Virus record (IMG/VR): IMGVR_UViG_3300028048_000055
Span: 32,001 to 96,000 of that record
Source: a virus
Lineage: Duplodnaviria > Caudoviricetes
DNA: 64,000 bases
Strand: one strand, 5' to 3'
How positions within the stretch are numbered: the first letter of the stretch is position 1; every line of letters begins with the position of its first letter. Below the pieces are notes generated by a model. That model was not told the origin of the DNA and searched no databases. It saw only the letters and a list, made by a program, of their open reading frames with translations. The position numbers and the translations under genes were made by a program. Below, piece by piece: positions 10,481 through 30,718 of the stretch.

Positions 10481-10542
10481 AATCAACGTAAAAACGAAAA
10501 ATGAAAAAAAGTTTTTATATATAATATAAAATGAGGATGAAA

Positions 10543-10680: not shown

Positions 10681-10994
10681 TGTTCCATAGCTCAGTTGGT
10701 AGAGCGACGGACTGTTTGAAATAGACACTTATATTGGAAACGATATATGAAAATCATCGCTAAGTCGGTGAAACCTGTAAAATGGCAACGCCGAGCAAGG
10801 ATTAGAAATAATCTATGTGTAGAGACTTTATACGATGAGCCTAAGTCAGTAATGATATGGCTAAGACAAAGTCCAGACTACAAACGAGTGTCCAATTTGC
10901 GCGGTGGGGGGCTTAACACCCATGCGGATGCTTGGTAACGAAAGTTATAGTAGTATGAATCCGTTGGTCCCTGGTTCGAGTCCAGGTGGAACAG
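10681..10994 (+). tRNA. tRNA-Asn(GTT), interrupted by a group I intron
   Basis: exons 10681-10716 and 10958-10994 rebuild the cloverleaf (ACGGA-CTGTTAA-TCCGT; TGTTCCA/TGGAACA). Confidence 0.9.
10717..10957 (+). mobile_element. group I intron (no ORF) in the tRNA-Asn anticodon loop
   Basis: P/Q/R/S-like core (TCGGTGAAAC, GGCAACGCCGAGCAAG, GTAGAGACT, AAGACAAAGTCC); U before the 5' splice site and terminal G. Confidence 0.85.
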
Positions 10995-11135
10995 CTAACA
11001 CTTAGACAGTAATTGTTCATTGTTACAACGTTATTGTTACGCACGATGAAATTCATGCAAGTTTGGAATCGACAATATTTTGTTAATTCTGGGTAAAGTT
11101 TCAATGAATAGCGGGTGATTATTATCTAAGTAGAT

Positions 11136-11482: not shown

Positions 11483-11521
11483 TAGTTTAGAGCAGTGGTT
11501 AGCTTATATTATAAATATTAT

Positions 11522-12280
11522 ATGGAATTAAAAATAAAACATATATGTAAATTTTGTAATATGGAGTTTACTACTGGGGCACAATTAGGAACACATATTT
11601 CTAAACAATGTCTTAAAAATCCAAATAGAGGAATACAAAAGAATTCTAAAATTTGGAAATGTTCAATTTGTGGTAATGATTTTCTTTCACGAAGAAGATT
11701 ACAACAGCATCGCAAAGATGAACATATTAACGAAATTAAAAGCAAATACTATGGGTATCATCCGATATTGAATATACCTTGTCAATTTTGCGGTTTAATT
11801 TGTAAAAGAGCTCGTGATTTAACAAGACATGAAAAATTTTGCAAAGAAAACCCAAATAAACAAATTTGGCAAGGACATAAAACTTCGGATGAAACTAAAA
11901 AGAAATTATCAGAAGCGGCTATTAAAAATCTTAGTGGTACACATTGTAATTGGTTAAATAAAAAGAAATCTTATGCTGAAGAATATTTTGAAACTATATT
12001 TACAAATGCTGAATCACAATATCAAGTTGGAAGATACGTATTAGATTTTGCATGGACTAAATCAAAAATTTATATTGAAGTTGATGGTGAACAGCATTAT
12101 ACTAAAGAAGGTATCGAACACGATAAGATTAGGACAGAATTTTTAATAGAAAATGGTTGGAGACTTTTAAAAAGAATTAGATGGTCTGAATTTCAAAAAC
12201 TTTCTAAAGCTGAACGTGAAAATGAAATTTATAGATTATTACAGACTATCAAAATTCAAGAAGAAACTAAAACGTTATGA
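11522..12280 (+). CDS. Zn-finger + NUMOD3-like + DUF559/Vsr-like putative homing endonuclease
   Basis: C2H2/CxxC repeats, HKTSDETKKKLS, LDFAW...IEVDGEQHY; TATAAATA-N4-ATG. Confidence 0.8.
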   Translation: MELKIKHICKFCNMEFTTGAQLGTHISKQCLKNPNRGIQKNSKIWKCSICGNDFLSRRRLQQHRKDEHINEIKSKYYGYHPILNIPCQFCGLICKRARDLTRHEKFCKENPNKQIWQGHKTSDETKKKLSEAAIKNLSGTHCNWLNKKKSYAEEYFETIFTNAESQYQVGRYVLDFAWTKSKIYIEVDGEQHYTKEGIEHDKIRTEFLIENGWRLLKRIRWSEFQKLSKAERENEIYRLLQTIKIQEETKTL

Positions 12281-12541: not shown

Positions 12542-12660
12542 TATAGCATAGGTAGTTCCTATTACTAAGCGTATAGCTCAACTGGTGGAGCAGTTACCGA
12601 AAGGTAAAAGGTTGTCGGTTCGAATCCGATTGTGCTTGCCATTCGATACTACCCGCTATA
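12542..12660 (+). ncRNA. UCCUAU scaffold copy 2 carrying an anticodon-less tRNA mimic (GAAA loop, CCA end)
   Basis: TATAGC-ATA-GGTAGT-TCCTAT...TAC-TACC-C-GCTATA enclosing tRNA-like 12567-12641. Confidence 0.8.
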
Positions 12661-13403: not shown

Positions 13404-14039
13404 ATGAATGAATATATATGTAAATTTTGCGGTAAGATTTGTAAAAACATAAATTCTTTAAAAAATCATGAAAGATTATGTAAATTAAATCCTAATAGAC
13501 AAATATCGCCATTTGTAAAATATAATGCAGAGCATGAAACAAGTTGGAATAAAGGGCTTACAAAAGAAAATGATGAAAGAGTTAAGCAAATGGCTGAAAC
13601 TATGAGTCAAAAAATAAGAGCAGGCCTAATACATAACTATGATCATCAAAAAGTATGGACAGAAGAACGTAGAAAAGCACAATCTGAAAGGAAAAAGAAA
13701 TTTTATGAAGAACACCCAGAAAAGCATCCTAATAGCTTAGTAGCTGGTGCACTTAATAAAATGACATATCCTGAAAAATTAGTTACTGAATATTTAAAAG
13801 AACATAATATAACAGCAGAACATAATTGGTATTTTAAAACAGAAAAATTTACAAGATATATAGATTTTTATATAGATGAATTAAAATTATTTATTGAAGT
13901 TGATGGAGAATATTGGCACAAAGATAAACAAAAAGATATTGATAAAGATAATGATGCATTAATGTATGGTTATAAAACATTAAGGTTAAAACCAAAAACA
14001 GTTATAACACAATTAAATGAATTTTTTAATATGGCATAG
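13404..14039 (+). CDS. Zn-finger + DUF559/Vsr-like putative homing endonuclease
   Basis: YICKFCGK...HERLC, WNKGLTKE, IDFY...IEVDGEYWH. Confidence 0.8.
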   Translation: MNEYICKFCGKICKNINSLKNHERLCKLNPNRQISPFVKYNAEHETSWNKGLTKENDERVKQMAETMSQKIRAGLIHNYDHQKVWTEERRKAQSERKKKFYEEHPEKHPNSLVAGALNKMTYPEKLVTEYLKEHNITAEHNWYFKTEKFTRYIDFYIDELKLFIEVDGEYWHKDKQKDIDKDNDALMYGYKTLRLKPKTVITQLNEFFNMA

Positions 14040-14222: not shown

Positions 14223-14882
14223 ATGGAAGAAAATTATATTTGTAAATTTTGTGGGAAACAATGTAAAAATGCTAATTCTTTACGAAATCACGAAAGATTT
14301 TGTAAAGAAAACCCTGAACACCAAGAATCTCCATGGATAAAATTTAATCATGAACGAGGCGCTTGGAATAAAGGATTAACTAAAGATACGGATGAACGTA
14401 TTAAAAAACGTAGCGAAACATTTTCAAAACGCTATAAAGGCACTGAAGAAGGGAAACGAATTTTTAGTCATCCGCAATCTGAAGAACATAAACAAAAAAT
14501 GCGTAAAATTGCAACAGAAAGACATTGGGGCGGTTGGCATACCTCAAAATCTATTGAATTTAATGGTATAAATTTAGATTCTAGTTATGAAGTTGAAGTA
14601 GCAAATCAACTTAATGAAAATAAAATAAAATGGGAAAGACCTACTTATTTTCTATGGGAAGATACTAATGGAGTAAAACATCGTTATTATCCTGATTTTT
14701 ATCTTCCAGAATATAATGTATATCTTGACCCAAAAAATGATTATTTAATAAATAATAAATCTAAAAAATTTGGTATTACTGATGTTGAAAAAATAATGAA
14801 AGTTGAACAACAAAATGGAATACGTATAATTATTTTAGATAAAGATAATTTAACATGGGAAAACATTAAAGAAAAGATTTAA
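14223..14882 (+). CDS. Zn-finger + PD-(D/E)xK putative homing endonuclease
   Basis: same N-terminal Zn finger as 13404; DSSYE...YYPDFYL...DPK. Confidence 0.75.
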   Translation: MEENYICKFCGKQCKNANSLRNHERFCKENPEHQESPWIKFNHERGAWNKGLTKDTDERIKKRSETFSKRYKGTEEGKRIFSHPQSEEHKQKMRKIATERHWGGWHTSKSIEFNGINLDSSYEVEVANQLNENKIKWERPTYFLWEDTNGVKHRYYPDFYLPEYNVYLDPKNDYLINNKSKKFGITDVEKIMKVEQQNGIRIIILDKDNLTWENIKEKI

Positions 14883-16612: not shown

Positions 16613-16734
16613 CGACGAGTAGCTCAATTGGTAGAGCACATGTTTTTTATACCAACCGCTACTTGGCAAACTTGGTTCCTATTAATTATGGAATAGGTCC
16701 ATGGGGGTTGTAGGTTCGAGTCCTACCTTCCCGG
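16613..16734 (+). ncRNA. tRNA-like RNA with a circularly permuted UCCUAU scaffold (copy 6) in place of the anticodon loop
   Basis: D arm and T arm flank TACCAAC-C-GCTA-CT-TGGC-AAA-CTTGGT-TCCTAT. Confidence 0.65.
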
Positions 16735-16748
16735 TTATAAAAAATTTA

Positions 16749-16910
16749 TCGCTGAATGCTCTATCGTCTAGTGGTTTAGGACAGCCGGGGGTTAAACCGG
16801 TGAACAGTGGGTTCGAATCCCCTTAGAGGTAACTAAATATTGATTGCAGTCAATATATTCTTCAGCGAGAGGTATACTGATTGACGCCTGCAAACGTTGT
16901 GATGTATACC
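16749..16910 (+). ncRNA. tRNA-like module enclosed in a longer structured RNA
   Basis: TCGCTGAA/TTCAGCGA stem encloses a tRNA-like fold with an 8-nt loop; extra hairpins. Confidence 0.5.
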
Positions 16911-17840: not shown

Positions 17841-17915
17841 GGGGCTGTAGCTCAGTTTTGGTGGAGCGGAAGACTGAAGATCTTCGCGTCGCAGGTTCGA
17901 TTCCTGCCGGGGGCA
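17841..17915 (+). tRNA. tRNA-Phe(GAA), mismatched acceptor stem
   Basis: GAAGA-CTGAAGA-TCTTC; GGGGCTG/CGGGGGC poorly paired. Confidence 0.6.
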
Positions 17916-18168: not shown

Positions 18169-18245
18169 CCATAGGCATAACGATTGGTTTTCCGTTTGCC
18201 ACTCTGATAAGGTGGAGACTGTAGGTTCAAATCCTACCCTATGGA
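18169..18245 (+). tRNA. tRNA-Ile(GAT)
   Basis: CCATAGG/CCTATGG acceptor; loop CTGATAA. Confidence 0.72.
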
Positions 18246-18352: not shown

Positions 18353-18388
18353 AAAAGGATTGACATTAGTCAATCCTTTTTCTATATT
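18353..18388 (+). terminator. fused terminator and promoter
   Basis: AAAAGGATTGAC/GTCAATCCTTTT hairpin contains TTGACA; TATATT 17 nt later. Confidence 0.7.
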
Positions 18389-19247: not shown

Positions 19248-19353
19248 GTTATTTCTTGGTGAAATAGACGCCACAGTTTAAGTAAAAGAGATTAAGTAAT
19301 AAAAATAAGGATTGACTAATGTCAATCCTTATTTAAATTTTTATAATAATTTA

Positions 19354-19901: not shown

Positions 19902-19930
19902 TTTACAAGAGTTAAATAATTTACTATATT
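19902..19930 (+). promoter_or_regulatory. promoter of tRNA block 4
   Basis: TTTACA-N17-TATATT. Confidence 0.75.
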
Positions 19931-19951: not shown

Positions 19952-20071
19952 AATAGCAAAAGCGGTTCCTATAACCAGAGGAATAGCTTAGTTGGTTAGA
20001 GCAACGCAGCAATGCGGAGGCCGTCGGTTCGAGTCCGATTTCCCCTACCATCAAGTTTACTGCTCGCTATT
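19952..20071 (+). ncRNA. UCCUAU scaffold copy 7 carrying an anticodon-less tRNA mimic (GCAA loop, ACCA end)
   Basis: AATAGC-AAA-AGCGGT-TCCTAT...TAC-TGCT-C-GCTATT enclosing tRNA-like 19977-20050. Confidence 0.8.
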
Positions 20072-20121
20072 TTTACAAAAACAGGAAAAAATTTTTTATA
20101 TATAATATAAAGGTTAAGAAA

Positions 20122-20223
20122 ATGACAAAGTTTGTAGTTGATATGCATGATGTTGATACTCGCCGCGATGGACGAGGTTTCGGCAAGCATGATAAGGATC
20201 GCTACAGACACAGGGTCATTTGA
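20122..20223 (+). CDS. attenuator leader peptide 4 (MTKFVVDMHDVDTRRDGRGFGKHDKDRYRHRVI)
   Basis: 6 Asp, 6 Arg, 3 Gly, 3 His, 3 Lys; precedes Asp/Arg/Gly/Lys/His tRNAs. Confidence 0.85.
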   Translation: MTKFVVDMHDVDTRRDGRGFGKHDKDRYRHRVI

Positions 20224-20247
20224 TATTAACTATATAAAGAGTTTATA

Positions 20248-20283
20248 AAGATGATTCCTGTGTAAAAACGGGAATCATTTTTT
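20248..20283 (+). terminator. attenuator terminator 4
   Basis: ATGATTCCTGT/ACGGGAATCAT plus T tract; ACACAGGGTCATTT (20208-20221) competes. Confidence 0.85.
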
Positions 20284-20287
20284 ATTT

Positions 20288-20358
20288 GGTCTCATCGTTT
20301 AATGGATGGACACTAGCTTGTCACGCTAGAAGTACGGGATCGTGACCCGTTGAGACCG
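20288..20358 (+). tRNA. tRNA-Asp(GTC)
   Basis: CTAGC-TTGTCAC-GCTAG. Confidence 0.8.
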
Positions 20359-20365
20359 CTAATAA

Positions 20366-20430: not shown

Positions 20431-20435
20431 AATTT

Positions 20436-20509
20436 GGTACCTTAGTTCAGTTGGTTAGAATGCCAGCCTGTCACGCTGGAGGTCACGAGATCGAAGCTCG
20501 TAGGTATCG
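20436..20509 (+). tRNA. tRNA-Asp(GTC)
   Basis: CCAGC-CTGTCAC-GCTGG. Confidence 0.85.
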
Positions 20510-20566
20510 TTAAGTCTGTTAAATTATTTTTGACAGGTTCGAAGAATAAAGAATTATATATAATAT

Positions 20567-21331
20567 ATGAATTACAGAAACATATATTATAAGATAATTG
20601 AGAAAGCAAAAAACGAGGATAAAAATGGACACAGACAGTTAGGTTATTTTGAAAAACATCATATATTACCTAAGTCATTAGGCGGTAGTAATGATAAAAA
20701 TAATTTAGTTAAACTTACAGCACGTGAACATTTTATTTGTCATTGGCTACTTGTTAAAATGTATGATAAAGGAACTGATGAAAGAAATAAAATGCTATGT
20801 GCTCTTTGGCGAATGCGTTCAAATCCATTACAAAATCATATACGGTATACTAATGCTAGAACATATGAAAATTTAAGAATAGAATATTCAAAAATTATAA
20901 GTAATCAAATGCATATTATACAAATGGGTAAAAACAATTCACAATTTGGAACTAAATGGTATACAAATAGAAATACAGGAGAAAGTAAAAAATTTAAAGA
21001 AAAACCAAAAGAAGAATATTGGATTGAAGGTAGAAATTTGTTTCATGGCGAAAGCAGTGTATTAAAAATAAAATTAATAACATTACGACATACTGAAACT
21101 AAAGTGCCGCAAAAAAATTATTTAAAATCAGTTGATGATGCACATAAATTATGGGATGAGTTTCATTCTGGAACTTATGAAAAATTAGATGACTTTGCTA
21201 AAATACACAATAAAACTAGAAGTGCAATATTTGTAAAATTTAAAAGATATATACCAGCATTTAATACAGATAAAAAACGTAGTTGCAGAAGTTATAAATC
21301 AAATAATATATTAATTGGAAAATATGAATAA
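20567..21331 (+). CDS. HNH homing endonuclease (MobE-like)
   Basis: EKHHILPKSLGGSN...NLVKLTAREHFICHWLL. Confidence 0.85.
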   Translation: MNYRNIYYKIIEKAKNEDKNGHRQLGYFEKHHILPKSLGGSNDKNNLVKLTAREHFICHWLLVKMYDKGTDERNKMLCALWRMRSNPLQNHIRYTNARTYENLRIEYSKIISNQMHIIQMGKNNSQFGTKWYTNRNTGESKKFKEKPKEEYWIEGRNLFHGESSVLKIKLITLRHTETKVPQKNYLKSVDDAHKLWDEFHSGTYEKLDDFAKIHNKTRSAIFVKFKRYIPAFNTDKKRSCRSYKSNNILIGKYE

Positions 21332-21344
21332 TAGTTTTGAATAT

Positions 21345-21419
21345 AGTCTCGTAGGCTAAGTGGATTTAAACCAGAAGACTACGAATCTTCAATTTCCAGT
21401 TCGAATCTGGACGAGACTA
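21345..21419 (+). tRNA. tRNA-Arg(ACG)
   Basis: GAAGA-CTACGAA-TCTTC. Confidence 0.82.
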
Positions 21420-21567
21420 CTAGAGTTGTCAGCTTAACAACTTTAAATAAATGAGTTCCTGGAGTTTGTAGGTAGCTTCTGCACAAAATCAAAAACCTTC
21501 ATTATGCGGTGGGAGTTTTGCTGGCTTCTCGTGTCCGACACCGGGCAGATAAAAAACCAGTATTTAT

Positions 21568-21641
21568 GCGGTAGTAGCTCAACTGGTAGAGCACCGGATT
21601 GCCATTTCGGAGGTTTGTGGGTTCGAGACCCATCTACCGCT
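21568..21641 (+). tRNA. tRNA-Gly(GCC)
   Basis: GCGGTAG/CTACCGC-U73; loop TTGCCAT. Confidence 0.88.
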
Positions 21642-21650
21642 CTAAAATTT

Positions 21651-21722
21651 GGATCTGTAACTCAGAGGAAGAGTACCTGCCTCTTAAGCAGGGAGTCGTG
21701 ATATCGTAATTCACCAGGTCCA
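21651..21722 (+). tRNA. tRNA-Lys(CTT)
   Basis: CCTGC-CTCTTAA-GCAGG; atypical T loop. Confidence 0.78.
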
Positions 21723-21737
21723 TTAAAAAATTTCATC

Positions 21738-21808
21738 CCATGTGTAGTGTAACGGTAGCACGCAAGTTTGTGGCACTTGAAGATTGGATTCGACTTCCAA
21801 CCTATGGA
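21738..21808 (+). tRNA. tRNA-His(GTG), no encoded G-1
   Basis: CAAGT-TTGTGGC-ACTTG; C at -1, A73. Confidence 0.75.
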
Positions 21809-21812
21809 TAAT

Positions 21813-21884
21813 GCGGTTATGGTGTAACTGGCAACATAATAGTCTTCCAAACTGTAGTTTCGGGATCGTACCCCGATAGCCGCT
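21813..21884 (+). tRNA. tRNA-Gly(TCC)
   Basis: GCGGTTA/TAGCCGC-U73; loop CTTCCAA. Confidence 0.82.
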
Positions 21885-21887
21885 CTA

Positions 21888-22607
21888 ATGAATTACTTAG
21901 AATTAAATGATAAAGGTAAGCTCGGAAGTGATGAGCAAAAATTGGCCGACTATTTTGGAGTCGGTCATTATACTACATTTTATAAAAAGCATTTTTTACA
22001 AAATAAAATAAAACTCACTAAGGATGATTTTATTGCAGGCGTAATTCCAGTAATGTTTTGCGCTATGAAAAAACTTAACATTGATTATAAGCATGATGAT
22101 TATCCTGAACAGCTACAAAAATATCTTCATCGTAGAATTTGGGAATCGACTCTTGGTCGTATAAAAACTAGTGTCTTTAATGATTATCTATTTGGACCTG
22201 TTTTTATTAAACCAAAAGATAAATTAAAAAAGTTTACTGGTTTTGTTTTAAATTCAAGAGATGATTGGCTTCTTACTGAAGGCGCAGGCGATAGCACGAA
22301 AATTATCTGTTCAAAACCGGTAAAATGGGTTACAGAATATCGTATTCCTGTAATTAATGGCGTCGCAAGAGATTATTGTCATTATTTTGGAAATCCAGGT
22401 ATATTTGTAGATAAGGCTGTAATTCAAAATATGATAGGTGATTGGAAAGATTCTCCAAAAGCATATTGCTTGGATGTTGGAGTCTTAGATACTGGAGAAA
22501 CTGCATTAATAGAAGTTAATGATGCATTTAGCTGCGGTAGTTACTCAATGAGTGCTGAAACCTATGGTGATTTACTGACAACAAGATGGAATGAGTTAAA
22601 AGGTTGA
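21888..22607 (+). CDS. ATP-grasp domain protein (DUF4343/R2K-like)
   Basis: VFIKP...KKFTG, EYR, LDVG...LIEVND motifs. Confidence 0.8.
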   Translation: MNYLELNDKGKLGSDEQKLADYFGVGHYTTFYKKHFLQNKIKLTKDDFIAGVIPVMFCAMKKLNIDYKHDDYPEQLQKYLHRRIWESTLGRIKTSVFNDYLFGPVFIKPKDKLKKFTGFVLNSRDDWLLTEGAGDSTKIICSKPVKWVTEYRIPVINGVARDYCHYFGNPGIFVDKAVIQNMIGDWKDSPKAYCLDVGVLDTGETALIEVNDAFSCGSYSMSAETYGDLLTTRWNELKG

Positions 22608-22638
22608 CGAAAGTCAACCTTTTTTCTATATTTAAATT

Positions 22639-22953: not shown

Positions 22954-23017
22954 TAGGATAAAGGTTGACGAAAGTCAATCTTTTTTCTATATTATAATAT
23001 GGAATAAAGGATTAATA

Positions 23018-25980: not shown

Positions 25981-26092
25981 TGCTTGGTGGTGAAAATCGT
26001 GTGGCCTAGGCGCATCGTAGGTAAACACGCCCCGCATAGTAGGGGTGTCTACTTAGCTGGTAGACTTGTTGGTTCGAGTCCAACCTAAGCAG
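25981..26092 (+). tRNA. atypical tRNA (Leu-like) with D-loop insertion and 8-nt anticodon loop
   Basis: acceptor, T arm and variable arm present; GCCCC-GCATAGTA-GGGGT. Confidence 0.55.
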
Positions 26093-26100
26093 TTAAATAT

Positions 26101-28725: not shown

Positions 28726-29262
28726 ATGTCAATAAGTTTAATTGAAAAATATGGAGAAGATTATATACGTAATGTTTTTAAAACTGCCAAAACAGTTGAT
28801 GAAGCATGTGAAAAATTACAAACAATAACAAAATATTTAAATTATTATGCAAAAGAATTAAATTGTATTGATGATTATAATAGAATAAAAATTAATTCTA
28901 GTCAAATTGTTAAAGAACGTTTAAAAGATTATCCAGATGCATACATAATGAAAAATGTTAATGGTGTAGTTACACGTACTATAAATGATGATGCATGGCT
29001 TAAATTAATTTTTGAAAATAAAATTAGTAGTAAAAAACAAACAATATTACGTATTCTTATTAAAGCAGGATATAAAGAAAATAAATGTGAATGTTGCGGT
29101 ATTAATGAATGGAATAAAAAACCAATAACTTTACAATTACATCACAAAAATGGAAATCCACGTGATAATTGTTTAGAAAATTTAGAAATATTATGTCCAA
29201 ATTGTCATTCACAAACTAATAATTATGGAAGTAAAAATGCGGCATTACATATAAAAGATTAA
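28726..29262 (+). CDS. HNH endonuclease
   Basis: CECCG...LQLHHKNGNPRDN...LCPNCHSQT. Confidence 0.85.
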   Translation: MSISLIEKYGEDYIRNVFKTAKTVDEACEKLQTITKYLNYYAKELNCIDDYNRIKINSSQIVKERLKDYPDAYIMKNVNGVVTRTINDDAWLKLIFENKISSKKQTILRILIKAGYKENKCECCGINEWNKKPITLQLHHKNGNPRDNCLENLEILCPNCHSQTNNYGSKNAALHIKD

Positions 29263-29884: not shown

Positions 29885-30718
29885 ATGAAGTTAAAATACA
29901 TATGTCAATATTGTAATAAAGAATTAACTAGGCCATGTGCATTAGCTATACATCAACGTGTTTGTAAATTAAATCCAAATAGACAACCGTTAATAAATAA
30001 TGGTAATTTAAATATAGCTAAATATCATAAACCTAAGGCTCCATATGGAACATGGAAATGTAAGTGGTGTAATAATGACATTATTTTTGATACTAGAAAA
30101 CAATTAAAAGAACATTTAAAAGAAAAACATCCAGAAAAACGTAATGCATGGAATAAAGGCTTAACAAAAGAAACTGATGAACGTGTTAAACAATTTGGTC
30201 AAACATATTCTAAGCGAATAAAAAATAAAGAAATATCTGCACTTTTTGCAGGCAAAAAACATACAGATGAATGGCGAAAAAATCATTCAGAATTACAAAA
30301 AGAAAGATATAAAGGAATATCGATATATGCAACCGTAAGGGAAAAACGAAAATCTTATCCTGAACAATATTTTGATAAAATATTTAGTGATGCAGAAAAA
30401 CAATATCATGTAGATAGTTATTTTTTAGATTATGCATGGCCATATATTAAATTATATATTGAAGTTGATGGTGAACAACATTATACTGAATCTGGTTTAC
30501 TTCATGATAAAGAAAGAGCAGAAATATTAAGTAAATTAGGTTGGAATTGTATTACGCGTATTAGATGGAAAAATTATATAAAATTAACAACTAATGAAAA
30601 AGAAAATTTTATAAATAATTTATTAAATAAAATTAATATTTTTAAAAATGAAACTATAGGAAGCAAAACAGACTGCCGGCTCCTATATACGGTGTACAAC
30701 GTCGAAGATAAGGTCTAG
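29885..30718 (+). CDS. Zn-finger + DUF559/Vsr-like putative homing endonuclease
   Basis: paralog of 11522: KSYPEQYF...LDYAW...IEVDGEQHY. Confidence 0.8.
   Translation: MKLKYICQYCNKELTRPCALAIHQRVCKLNPNRQPLINNGNLNIAKYHKPKAPYGTWKCKWCNNDIIFDTRKQLKEHLKEKHPEKRNAWNKGLTKETDERVKQFGQTYSKRIKNKEISALFAGKKHTDEWRKNHSELQKERYKGISIYATVREKRKSYPEQYFDKIFSDAEKQYHVDSYFLDYAWPYIKLYIEVDGEQHYTESGLLHDKERAEILSKLGWNCITRIRWKNYIKLTTNEKENFINNLLNKINIFKNETIGSKTDCRLLYTVYNVEDKV

Follow-up and report, generated by a model that had tools for sequence, protein, structure and literature searches.

Why do a short open reading frame (ORF) and a terminator stand directly in front of a block of phage tRNA genes, and why do most codons of the ORF specify the amino acids that these tRNAs carry? 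The purpose of phage tRNA genes has been debated for fifty years, the main proposals being that they provide codon compensation, replace host tRNAs that have been degraded or allow the phage to escape anticodon nucleases; to our knowledge, the regulation of these genes has hardly been addressed. The locus analysed here, A4, belongs to an uncultured huge phage, which is represented by a 165-kb IMG/VR virus record (~40% complete, 32% G+C). The window, the whole stretch of 64,000 nucleotides that was analysed, covers bases 32001-96000 of this record. Judged from its sequence, A4 is probably a ribosome-mediated attenuator, which would couple transcription of the tRNA block to the decoding speed of the codons of the block. 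Direct observations are the ORF with its codon content, two helices that exclude each other and their locations, the conservation of the unit and the co-variation among sister units.

A4 is embedded in a long tRNA array. Between 10.5 and 31.3 kb of the window, 38 tRNA genes were called by ARAGORN and several extra ones by Rfam, all on the + strand. Homing-endonuclease-like genes are interspersed through the array; six free-standing endonuclease-like ORFs (zinc-finger/HNH; 11495-12280, 13404-14039, 14223-14882, 20567-21331, 28726-29262 and 29885-30718) lie between tRNA genes, and they appear to be mobile within arrays because their insertion positions vary between relatives. The relatives, which were found via a neighbouring gene and a conserved motif, have phage genomes of 411-424 kb, two of them with terminal repeats. 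A blastn search of GenBank phages identified no close relative; only tRNA and homing-endonuclease pieces were matched, for example in Lak phages.

Several unusual elements were observed in the same array. With relaxed settings, ARAGORN called tRNA-like genes at 16757-16831 and 26002-26093 with the four-base anticodons GTTA and ATAG, respectively, which correspond to eight-base anticodon loops; these are possible frameshift-type or non-decoding tRNAs. Two further loci are possible interrupted tRNA genes. At 10681-10995, one tRNA 5' half lies directly 3' of the terminator of leader A1, and ARAGORN joins it across 241 nt, a call that is perhaps unreliable; at 16613-16734, the Rfam tRNA match extends over 122 nt, with an insert of ~50 nt that contains a TTCCTAT motif. 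One hairpin repeat around TTGAC/GTCAA was found at 18353-18380, 19303-19334, 22598-22623 and 22960-22983; these hairpins overlap promoter-like sequences (TTGAC(A/G), 17 nt, TATATT), forming intergenic terminator-and-promoter junctions.

The tRNA genes downstream of A4, as identified by ARAGORN and Rfam, are exactly those that the earlier note had listed. They are followed by one protein-coding gene and interrupted by another.

20288-20359 and 20435-20510, + strand: two tRNA-Asp(GTC) genes
20567-21331, + strand: gene inserted between the tRNAs, resembling HNH homing endonucleases (HNH E = 6e-4, short of the curated cut-off)
21345-21420, + strand: tRNA-Arg(ACG)
21568-21642, + strand: tRNA-Gly(GCC)
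21650-21723, + strand: tRNA-Lys(CTT)
21738-21808, + strand: tRNA-His(GTG)
21813-21885, + strand: tRNA-Gly(TCC)
21888-22607: ATP-grasp gene of the R2K clade (Pfam PF18299, E = 3e-37), starting 3 nt after the last tRNA of the block

The HNH gene has its own TTGACA promoter (20530-20557), together with one copy of the 12-mer TTATATATAATA. As this promoter precedes the five distal tRNAs, they may partly escape the attenuator. In the relatives G003, G005 and G002 the HNH gene is missing from the A4 block, and the whole block lies directly behind the terminator. The ATP-grasp gene may share the attenuated transcript in this phage, because no terminator precedes it; a terminator is located at its 3' side (22598-22623), and in relatives the gene follows other tRNAs.

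Upstream of the block, the following elements were assigned.

19902-19930, + strand: sigma-70-like promoter (TTTACA, 17 nt, TATATT; 10/12 match)
19977-20050, + strand: tRNA-like gene (Rfam tRNA, 47.8 bits; relaxed ARAGORN; CCA encoded)
20075-20121, + strand: A/T-rich 5' UTR module, with TTATATATAATA at 20096-20107 and a Shine-Dalgarno-like AAAGG at 20109-20113
20122-20223, + strand: leader ORF A4, 33 sense codons plus TGA, with its ATG at 20122
20140-20202, + strand: regulatory codon run, codons 7-27, of which 17 of 21 belong to the set of the block

The leader ORF reads MTKFVVDMHDVDTRRDGRGFGKHDKDRYRHRVI, followed by TGA. Like its sister leaders, it matched no Pfam or PHROG family. The earlier note described A4 as a leader rich in Asp, Arg, Gly, His and Lys codons, and the codon count bears this out: 21 of the 33 codons belong to this set (Asp 6, Arg 6, Gly 3, His 3, Lys 3), the Gly codons are GGA, GGT and GGC, and AAG is used for Lys three times out of three. 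When the start codon is left aside, 21 of 32 codons specify amino acids of the block (binomial P = 5e-6, background 0.268); the other 11 are four Val, two Thr and two Phe codons and one each for Met, Tyr and Ile. Counted by codon, the seven downstream tRNAs can read 19 of the 32 under wobble rules (P = 1e-6, background 0.199). The record's long ORFs supplied both backgrounds (27% and 20%). When every ATG ORF of 20-60 codons in the whole 165-kb record was scored, counting both strands (953 ORFs), A4 alone came out on top by either measure.

Codon choice within the set was also inspected. CGC, which is decoded by Arg(ACG), makes up three of the six Arg codons in A4, compared to 4% of Arg codons genome-wide (P = 1e-3). 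The all-AAG usage for Lys is weak on its own (P = 0.08), because AAG accounts for 43% of the Lys codons of the genome; it is informative only beside an AAA-type leader in the relative G001, which is described below.

The AAAGG motif sits 9-13 bases 5' of the A4 ATG, a position that matches the G-rich AAGG signal found at -11 to -7 of the long ORFs of this phage. The promoter module of A4 also precedes leaders A1, A3, A5 and A6, and the promoter region upstream of A4 is 86% identical to that of G002. The 5' UTR module is identical across 8 orthologues, and its copies before A3 and A5 show 88-92% identity. TTATATATAATA occurs six times in 165 kb; besides the copy at 20096-20107, it is present at 10515, 17007, 20554, 25351 and 28328. 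Five of the copies precede leaders and one lies directly before the HNH ATG (20567). The A/T-rich module may act as an additional promoter, enhance translation or bind a protein.

The tRNA-like gene at 19977-20050 is probably co-transcribed with the leader. Its acceptor, D and T arms are normal, and the anticodon loop is replaced by a GNRA tetraloop (GCAA), so the product should be unable to decode. One second gene of the same kind, also with encoded CCA and normal arms but with a GAAA tetraloop, is located at 12567-12641, and each of the two genes is enclosed in a TCCTAT-containing hairpin scaffold. The gene at 19977-20050 is kept in G001, G003 and G005; it is absent in G002, where the promoter abuts the leader UTR. 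It is context for A4, and the attenuator does not need it.

The RNA between the leader and the first tRNA was then divided into four regions according to its pairing.

20120-20142, + strand: region 1, which pairs with region 2 in untranslated RNA and covers the start codon (minimum-free-energy folds)
20207-20222, + strand: region 2, the antiterminator strand, spanning the final five codons and the greater part of the stop codon
20247-20263, + strand: region 3, the terminator 5' arm, common to antiterminator and terminator
20268-20287, + strand: region 4, the terminator 3' arm (20268-20282) and the T run (to 20287)

Regions 3 and 4 form an intrinsic terminator (20247-20282) of 15 pairs followed by the T run, with a folding energy of -18.8 kcal/mol. 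The earlier note held that a strand reaching the stop codon pairs with this terminator; in our folds, 20207-20222 indeed pairs with its 5' arm (20249-20263) through 14 pairs with one bulge, at -17.0 kcal/mol. Region 2 is the best duplex partner of the 5' arm, and only 0.3% of shuffles were as good. The 2:3 fold alone has an energy of -19.5 kcal/mol, and the hairpin of the untranslated leader -34.6 kcal/mol. Since the energies of the 2:3 and 3:4 folds are close, the outcome would hinge on kinetics. The spacing is tight: 23 nt separate the stop codon from the terminator, and 5 nt separate the terminator stem (20282) from the first tRNA, which leaves no room for a separate promoter. Because it lies directly 3' of the T run, the first tRNA-Asp (20288) should be made only by read-through.

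We simulated the switch by folding the transcript as it is before the 3' arm exists, the ribosome being represented by 30 masked nt around its A site. When this site was placed at any of codons 7-24, all 14 region 3 bases pair with region 2, and 14 of the 18 codons in this stretch belong to the set of the block. With the A site at codon 26 or beyond, or at the stop codon, no region 3 base pairs with region 2. At five in-set codons (26, 27, 29, 30 and 31) a stalled ribosome would cover region 2 itself. The modelled geometry of the A4 switch is that of a classical trp-type attenuator. The helix of regions 1 and 2 was also considered as a conserved pause hairpin and rejected: its 3' partner (20198-20206) varies in orthologues without compensation, so this helix is the least certain part of the model.

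From these features, we infer translation of the A4 ORF, termination and read-through, as well as the natural signal, and propose the following course of events. Transcription from the promoter at 19902-19930, and possibly also from the A/T-rich module before the ORF, would yield a short mRNA that is translated at once. With fast decoding of the Asp, Arg(CGN), Gly, Lys(AAG) and His codons, the ribosome would reach the last codons or the stop codon and cover 20207-20222; the terminator at 20247-20282 would then fold, and RNA polymerase would halt 5 nt before tRNA-Asp. If any codon of the set is decoded slowly, the ribosome would wait within codons 7-24. Such a slow-down might be caused by scarce, uncharged or cleaved host tRNAs, or by high demand from the phage's own genes. 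The free 20207-20222 strand would pair with the emerging 5' arm and block the terminator, and read-through would produce Asp, Asp, (HNH), Arg, Gly, Lys, His and Gly. The newly made tRNAs would relieve the stall, giving negative feedback and supply on demand.

A4 is one of six such units in the window. The five sister leader ORFs occur in the same context.

10531, 12797, 17033, 25377 and 28358: starts of five further leader ORFs, four of them with an A4-type promoter and UTR module

In all five sister units the terminator lies 25-32 nt past the stop codon, and one tRNA follows within ~20 nt of the terminator, except for the 17033 unit, whose first called tRNA is ~100 nt beyond it. In five of the six units, the strongest upstream partner of the terminator 5' arm overlaps or abuts the leader stop codon, even though the arm sequences differ. 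The leaders match the amino acids of their own blocks at 12/23, 12/20, 12/34, 21/32, 15/27 and 18/28 codons, A4 being the fourth. Of the 720 possible pairings of leaders with blocks, the true one scored highest; it matches 90 of 164 codons, whereas the mean is 33.

Leader A3 (17033) provided a prediction. It contains five Phe and five Ile codons, and ARAGORN found neither tRNA in the A3 block. Rfam identified two extra tRNAs in this block, with the anticodon loops CUGAAGA (Phe, GAA; 17844-17915) and CUGAUAA (Ile, GAU; 18169-18245). When these are counted, the A3 match rises from 12 to 22 of 34. The Phe- and Ile-rich leader thus predicted both tRNAs that default ARAGORN had missed, and the prediction held.

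Orthologues of the A4 leader were searched for in IMG/VR with a codon-degenerate pattern for the peptide core; they were found in 14 contigs, which represent about eight distinct versions. The frame is open for 33 codons in every version, and the stop codon is TGA, TAG or TAA at one fixed site. An alignment of eight versions has 5, 4 and 11 variable columns at the first, second and third codon positions, respectively. Most replacements of in-set residues lead to another residue of the set (Asp to Lys or Gly, Arg to Lys, His to Lys or Arg), and one Tyr to His replacement enters it. Taking all versions together, Lys AAG codons occupy six positions, and a single contig has one AAA. The synonymous sites of codons 13-27 are almost invariant. 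An overlapping ORF in the +1 frame (20138-20248), which has a TTG start and no Shine-Dalgarno site, was considered as the coding frame and rejected, as the substitution pattern fits the 20122 frame.

Regions 2 and 3 show no variation among the 8 A4 orthologues, and the region 3 core GATTCCTGTG is invariant; covariation support for the 2:3 pairing therefore comes from the sister units only. It is provided by the A5-type units, in which one C-to-T change in the terminator 5' arm is compensated by two G-to-A changes, one in the 3' arm and one in region 2. Such a three-way change is expected from one strand that alternates between two pairing partners. In the A4 orthologues, the terminator loop and 3' arm vary with pairing retained (G-U to A-U); the spacer 3' of the stop codon and the terminator loop are the most variable parts.

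The tRNA content of the block is constant for most members: Asp, Asp, one or two Lys(CTT), Gly(GCC), Gly(TCC) and His(GTG) are found in the orthologues. Arg(ACG) is the exception. It is present in the window and in contigs L025, L028 and L030, and absent from the A4 block of G002, G003/G005, L027, L078 and L079, where the leader nevertheless retains 5-6 Arg codons. A homologue search for Arg(ACG) in five relatives did not find it in G002, G003 and G005; ARAGORN gave no Arg(ACG) in ~80-120 kb around the arrays of these three, and in G002 and G003 the search for any Arg tRNA out to ~60 kb from the array was negative. Arg codons kept without an Arg tRNA imply either that the match between leader and block is not strict or that the loss is recent. 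Patchy tRNA loss is the simplest account of these absences, which nevertheless show that close tracking between a leader and its block is not obligatory.

In other blocks, leader codons were found to change together with the tRNAs. In G003/G005, the Cys and Gln tRNAs are located in the Trp/Leu/Ser block and not in the Tyr block; the Trp/Leu leader there has two Cys and two Gln(CAG) codons, compared to none in its window counterpart, and the Tyr-block leader has no Cys codon, compared to four in the window. In G002, the Tyr block carries Ile(GAT), and its leader has four Ile codons versus one in the window. G001 contains a seventh leader and terminator unit that is absent from the window.

L076:17188-17265 (G001, ~127.2 kb): seventh leader and terminator unit, before Gln(CTG), Lys(TTT), Arg(TCT) and Gln(TTG)

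This leader uses Lys AAA three times, Gln four times, and Arg AGG and AGA. The choice of the Lys codon hence follows the anticodon, AAG with Lys(CTT) in A4-type leaders and AAA with Lys(TTT) in G001 (Fisher P = 0.018).

Taken together, these observations support the attenuator reading of the earlier note. The unit combines, in conserved form, every hallmark of such an attenuator that can be read from sequence: one leader ORF and its ribosome-binding site, matched codons, a terminator too close to the first tRNA for a promoter to fit between them, and an antiterminator strand on the stop codon; by sequence comparison and folding, the five paralogous units and the orthologues behave as the model predicts.

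How specific the sensing would be is the point at issue in one rival reading. A4 could be a general sensor of translation state, opened by any slowing of the ribosome, such as that caused by amino-acid starvation, ribosome damage or host shut-off, with a codon match that is loose and partly historical. The Arg codons that persist in relatives without an Arg tRNA in the block fit this idea, as do the one third of A4 codons outside the set; however, leaders match their own blocks far better than other blocks, and their codons shift when tRNAs change block. The shared promoter and UTR module, through which the units may fire together, is also in line with a general sensor, whereas codon choice that tracks the anticodon (AAG or AAA, CGN or AGR) points to individual tRNAs. 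Weighing both sides, we consider a sensor without tRNA specificity unlikely.

According to another explanation, A4 is a gene for one small charged peptide, followed by a constitutively leaky terminator or an RNA-processing hairpin, and resembles an attenuator only by coincidence. Good conservation of the peptide fits this view, and the near-invariant synonymous sites in codons 13-27 could reflect any constraint. Six unrelated peptides, however, occupy the same position and each mirrors its own tRNA block, replacements track tRNA content rather than peptide chemistry, and the leaders belong to no Pfam or PHROG family. Together with the first rank of the A4 ORF among 953 short ORFs and a stop codon that, in all but one of the six units, falls on the partner strand of the terminator arm, this makes such a peptide gene highly improbable.

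We likewise give very little credence to a translation-independent RNA switch, in which a bound protein or an uncharged tRNA (T-box-like) would set the helices and the ORF would remain unread: alternative helices do exist, a conserved A/T-rich module precedes the ORF and a tRNA-like RNA lies just upstream of the leader, but substitutions follow a coding frame that ends at one fixed site in TGA, TAG or TAA, the Shine-Dalgarno spacing resembles that of the phage's own genes, the amino-acid logic would be meaningless without translation, and no T-box or other Rfam cis-regulator was matched at E <= 1. In this cmscan search of 10000-32000, only tRNAs and chance sRNA matches were obtained, and neither the T-box leader model nor any Rfam leader family (His, Thr, Trp, Leu, Phe and others) was among them.

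The attenuator that we favour resembles several known systems. Among the enterobacterial leaders, which include trpL, hisL, pheL and leuL, multivalent ones are found as well: ilvGMEDA senses Leu, Val and Ile, and thr senses Thr and Ile. Like them, A4 has one short leader ORF rich in regulatory codons, four regions that form mutually exclusive antiterminator and terminator helices, and a stop codon positioned so that a finishing ribosome would mask region 2. The ilv and thr leaders, in which one leader senses several amino acids, are closest in mechanism. Different from the enterobacterial attenuators, A4 samples five amino acids and its targets are tRNAs rather than biosynthetic enzymes, so that the product would act directly on the decoding step that is sensed. 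A4 also belongs to a phage-borne bank of six to seven units with a shared promoter and UTR module, and it has no sequence or Rfam match to the enterobacterial leaders.

In E. coli, the pheST attenuator with its pheM leader controls phenylalanyl-tRNA synthetase. This system is closest in purpose, since it places one component of the translation apparatus under leader-peptide control by the decoding of matching codons; its target is a synthetase, it senses one amino acid and it is chromosomal, whereas A4 would control the tRNA genes themselves. T-box riboswitches of Gram-positive bacteria bind uncharged tRNA directly and do not need translation. Like a T-box, A4 would read the state of tRNAs and choose between terminator and antiterminator ahead of translation-related genes; unlike it, the A4 frame evolves as coding sequence, and the array in the window contains no T-box match.

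The natural signal of A4 may be housekeeping feedback, codon demand or host tRNA cleavage. We tentatively raise a further possibility, which we hold to be less likely than the attenuator itself: that the six units (seven in G001) are a codon-resolved alarm for host tRNA damage and form an inducible counter-defence regulon, as opposed to plain housekeeping feedback. When a defence nuclease cuts given tRNAs, only the unit with those codons would open, and the phage would then make the replacements that it needs, such as Lys, Arg, Asp or His tRNA. The earlier note had pointed to tRNA-Lys as a known target of PrrC and PARIS, and for PARIS the cleavage is published: AriB cleaves host tRNA-Lys, and T5's own tRNA-Lys rescues the phage (PMC11464382). 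An anticodon-loop escape hypothesis for phage tRNAs has also been put forward (PMC10264068). Both lines of work offer a motive for a phage to supply Lys and other tRNAs of its own once those of the host fail, and the A4 block does contain a tRNA-Lys; cleavage by PARIS and rescue by T5 thus make a damage-sensing role of A4 plausible. The link to PrrC and PARIS is nevertheless background and not evidence for A4.

Both of these papers (PMC11464382, PMC10264068) treat the tRNAs and not their regulation, and mention no leader or attenuator. Our full-text literature searches found no paper on leader-peptide control of tRNA genes, and such control goes unmentioned in recent papers on phage tRNAs and PARIS. 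Attenuator control of phage tRNA genes is thus apparently unpublished.

If the attenuator reading is true, leader-peptide attenuation as known from textbooks would extend from amino-acid operons to RNA genes of the translation apparatus, and the attenuator units would offer compact, modular sensors of single-tRNA availability. For the phage, it would mean that decoding speed is gauged codon by codon and that only shortages are topped up. The natural inducer of each unit would then reveal the purpose of its tRNAs, and the debate on phage tRNA genes would become an experiment.
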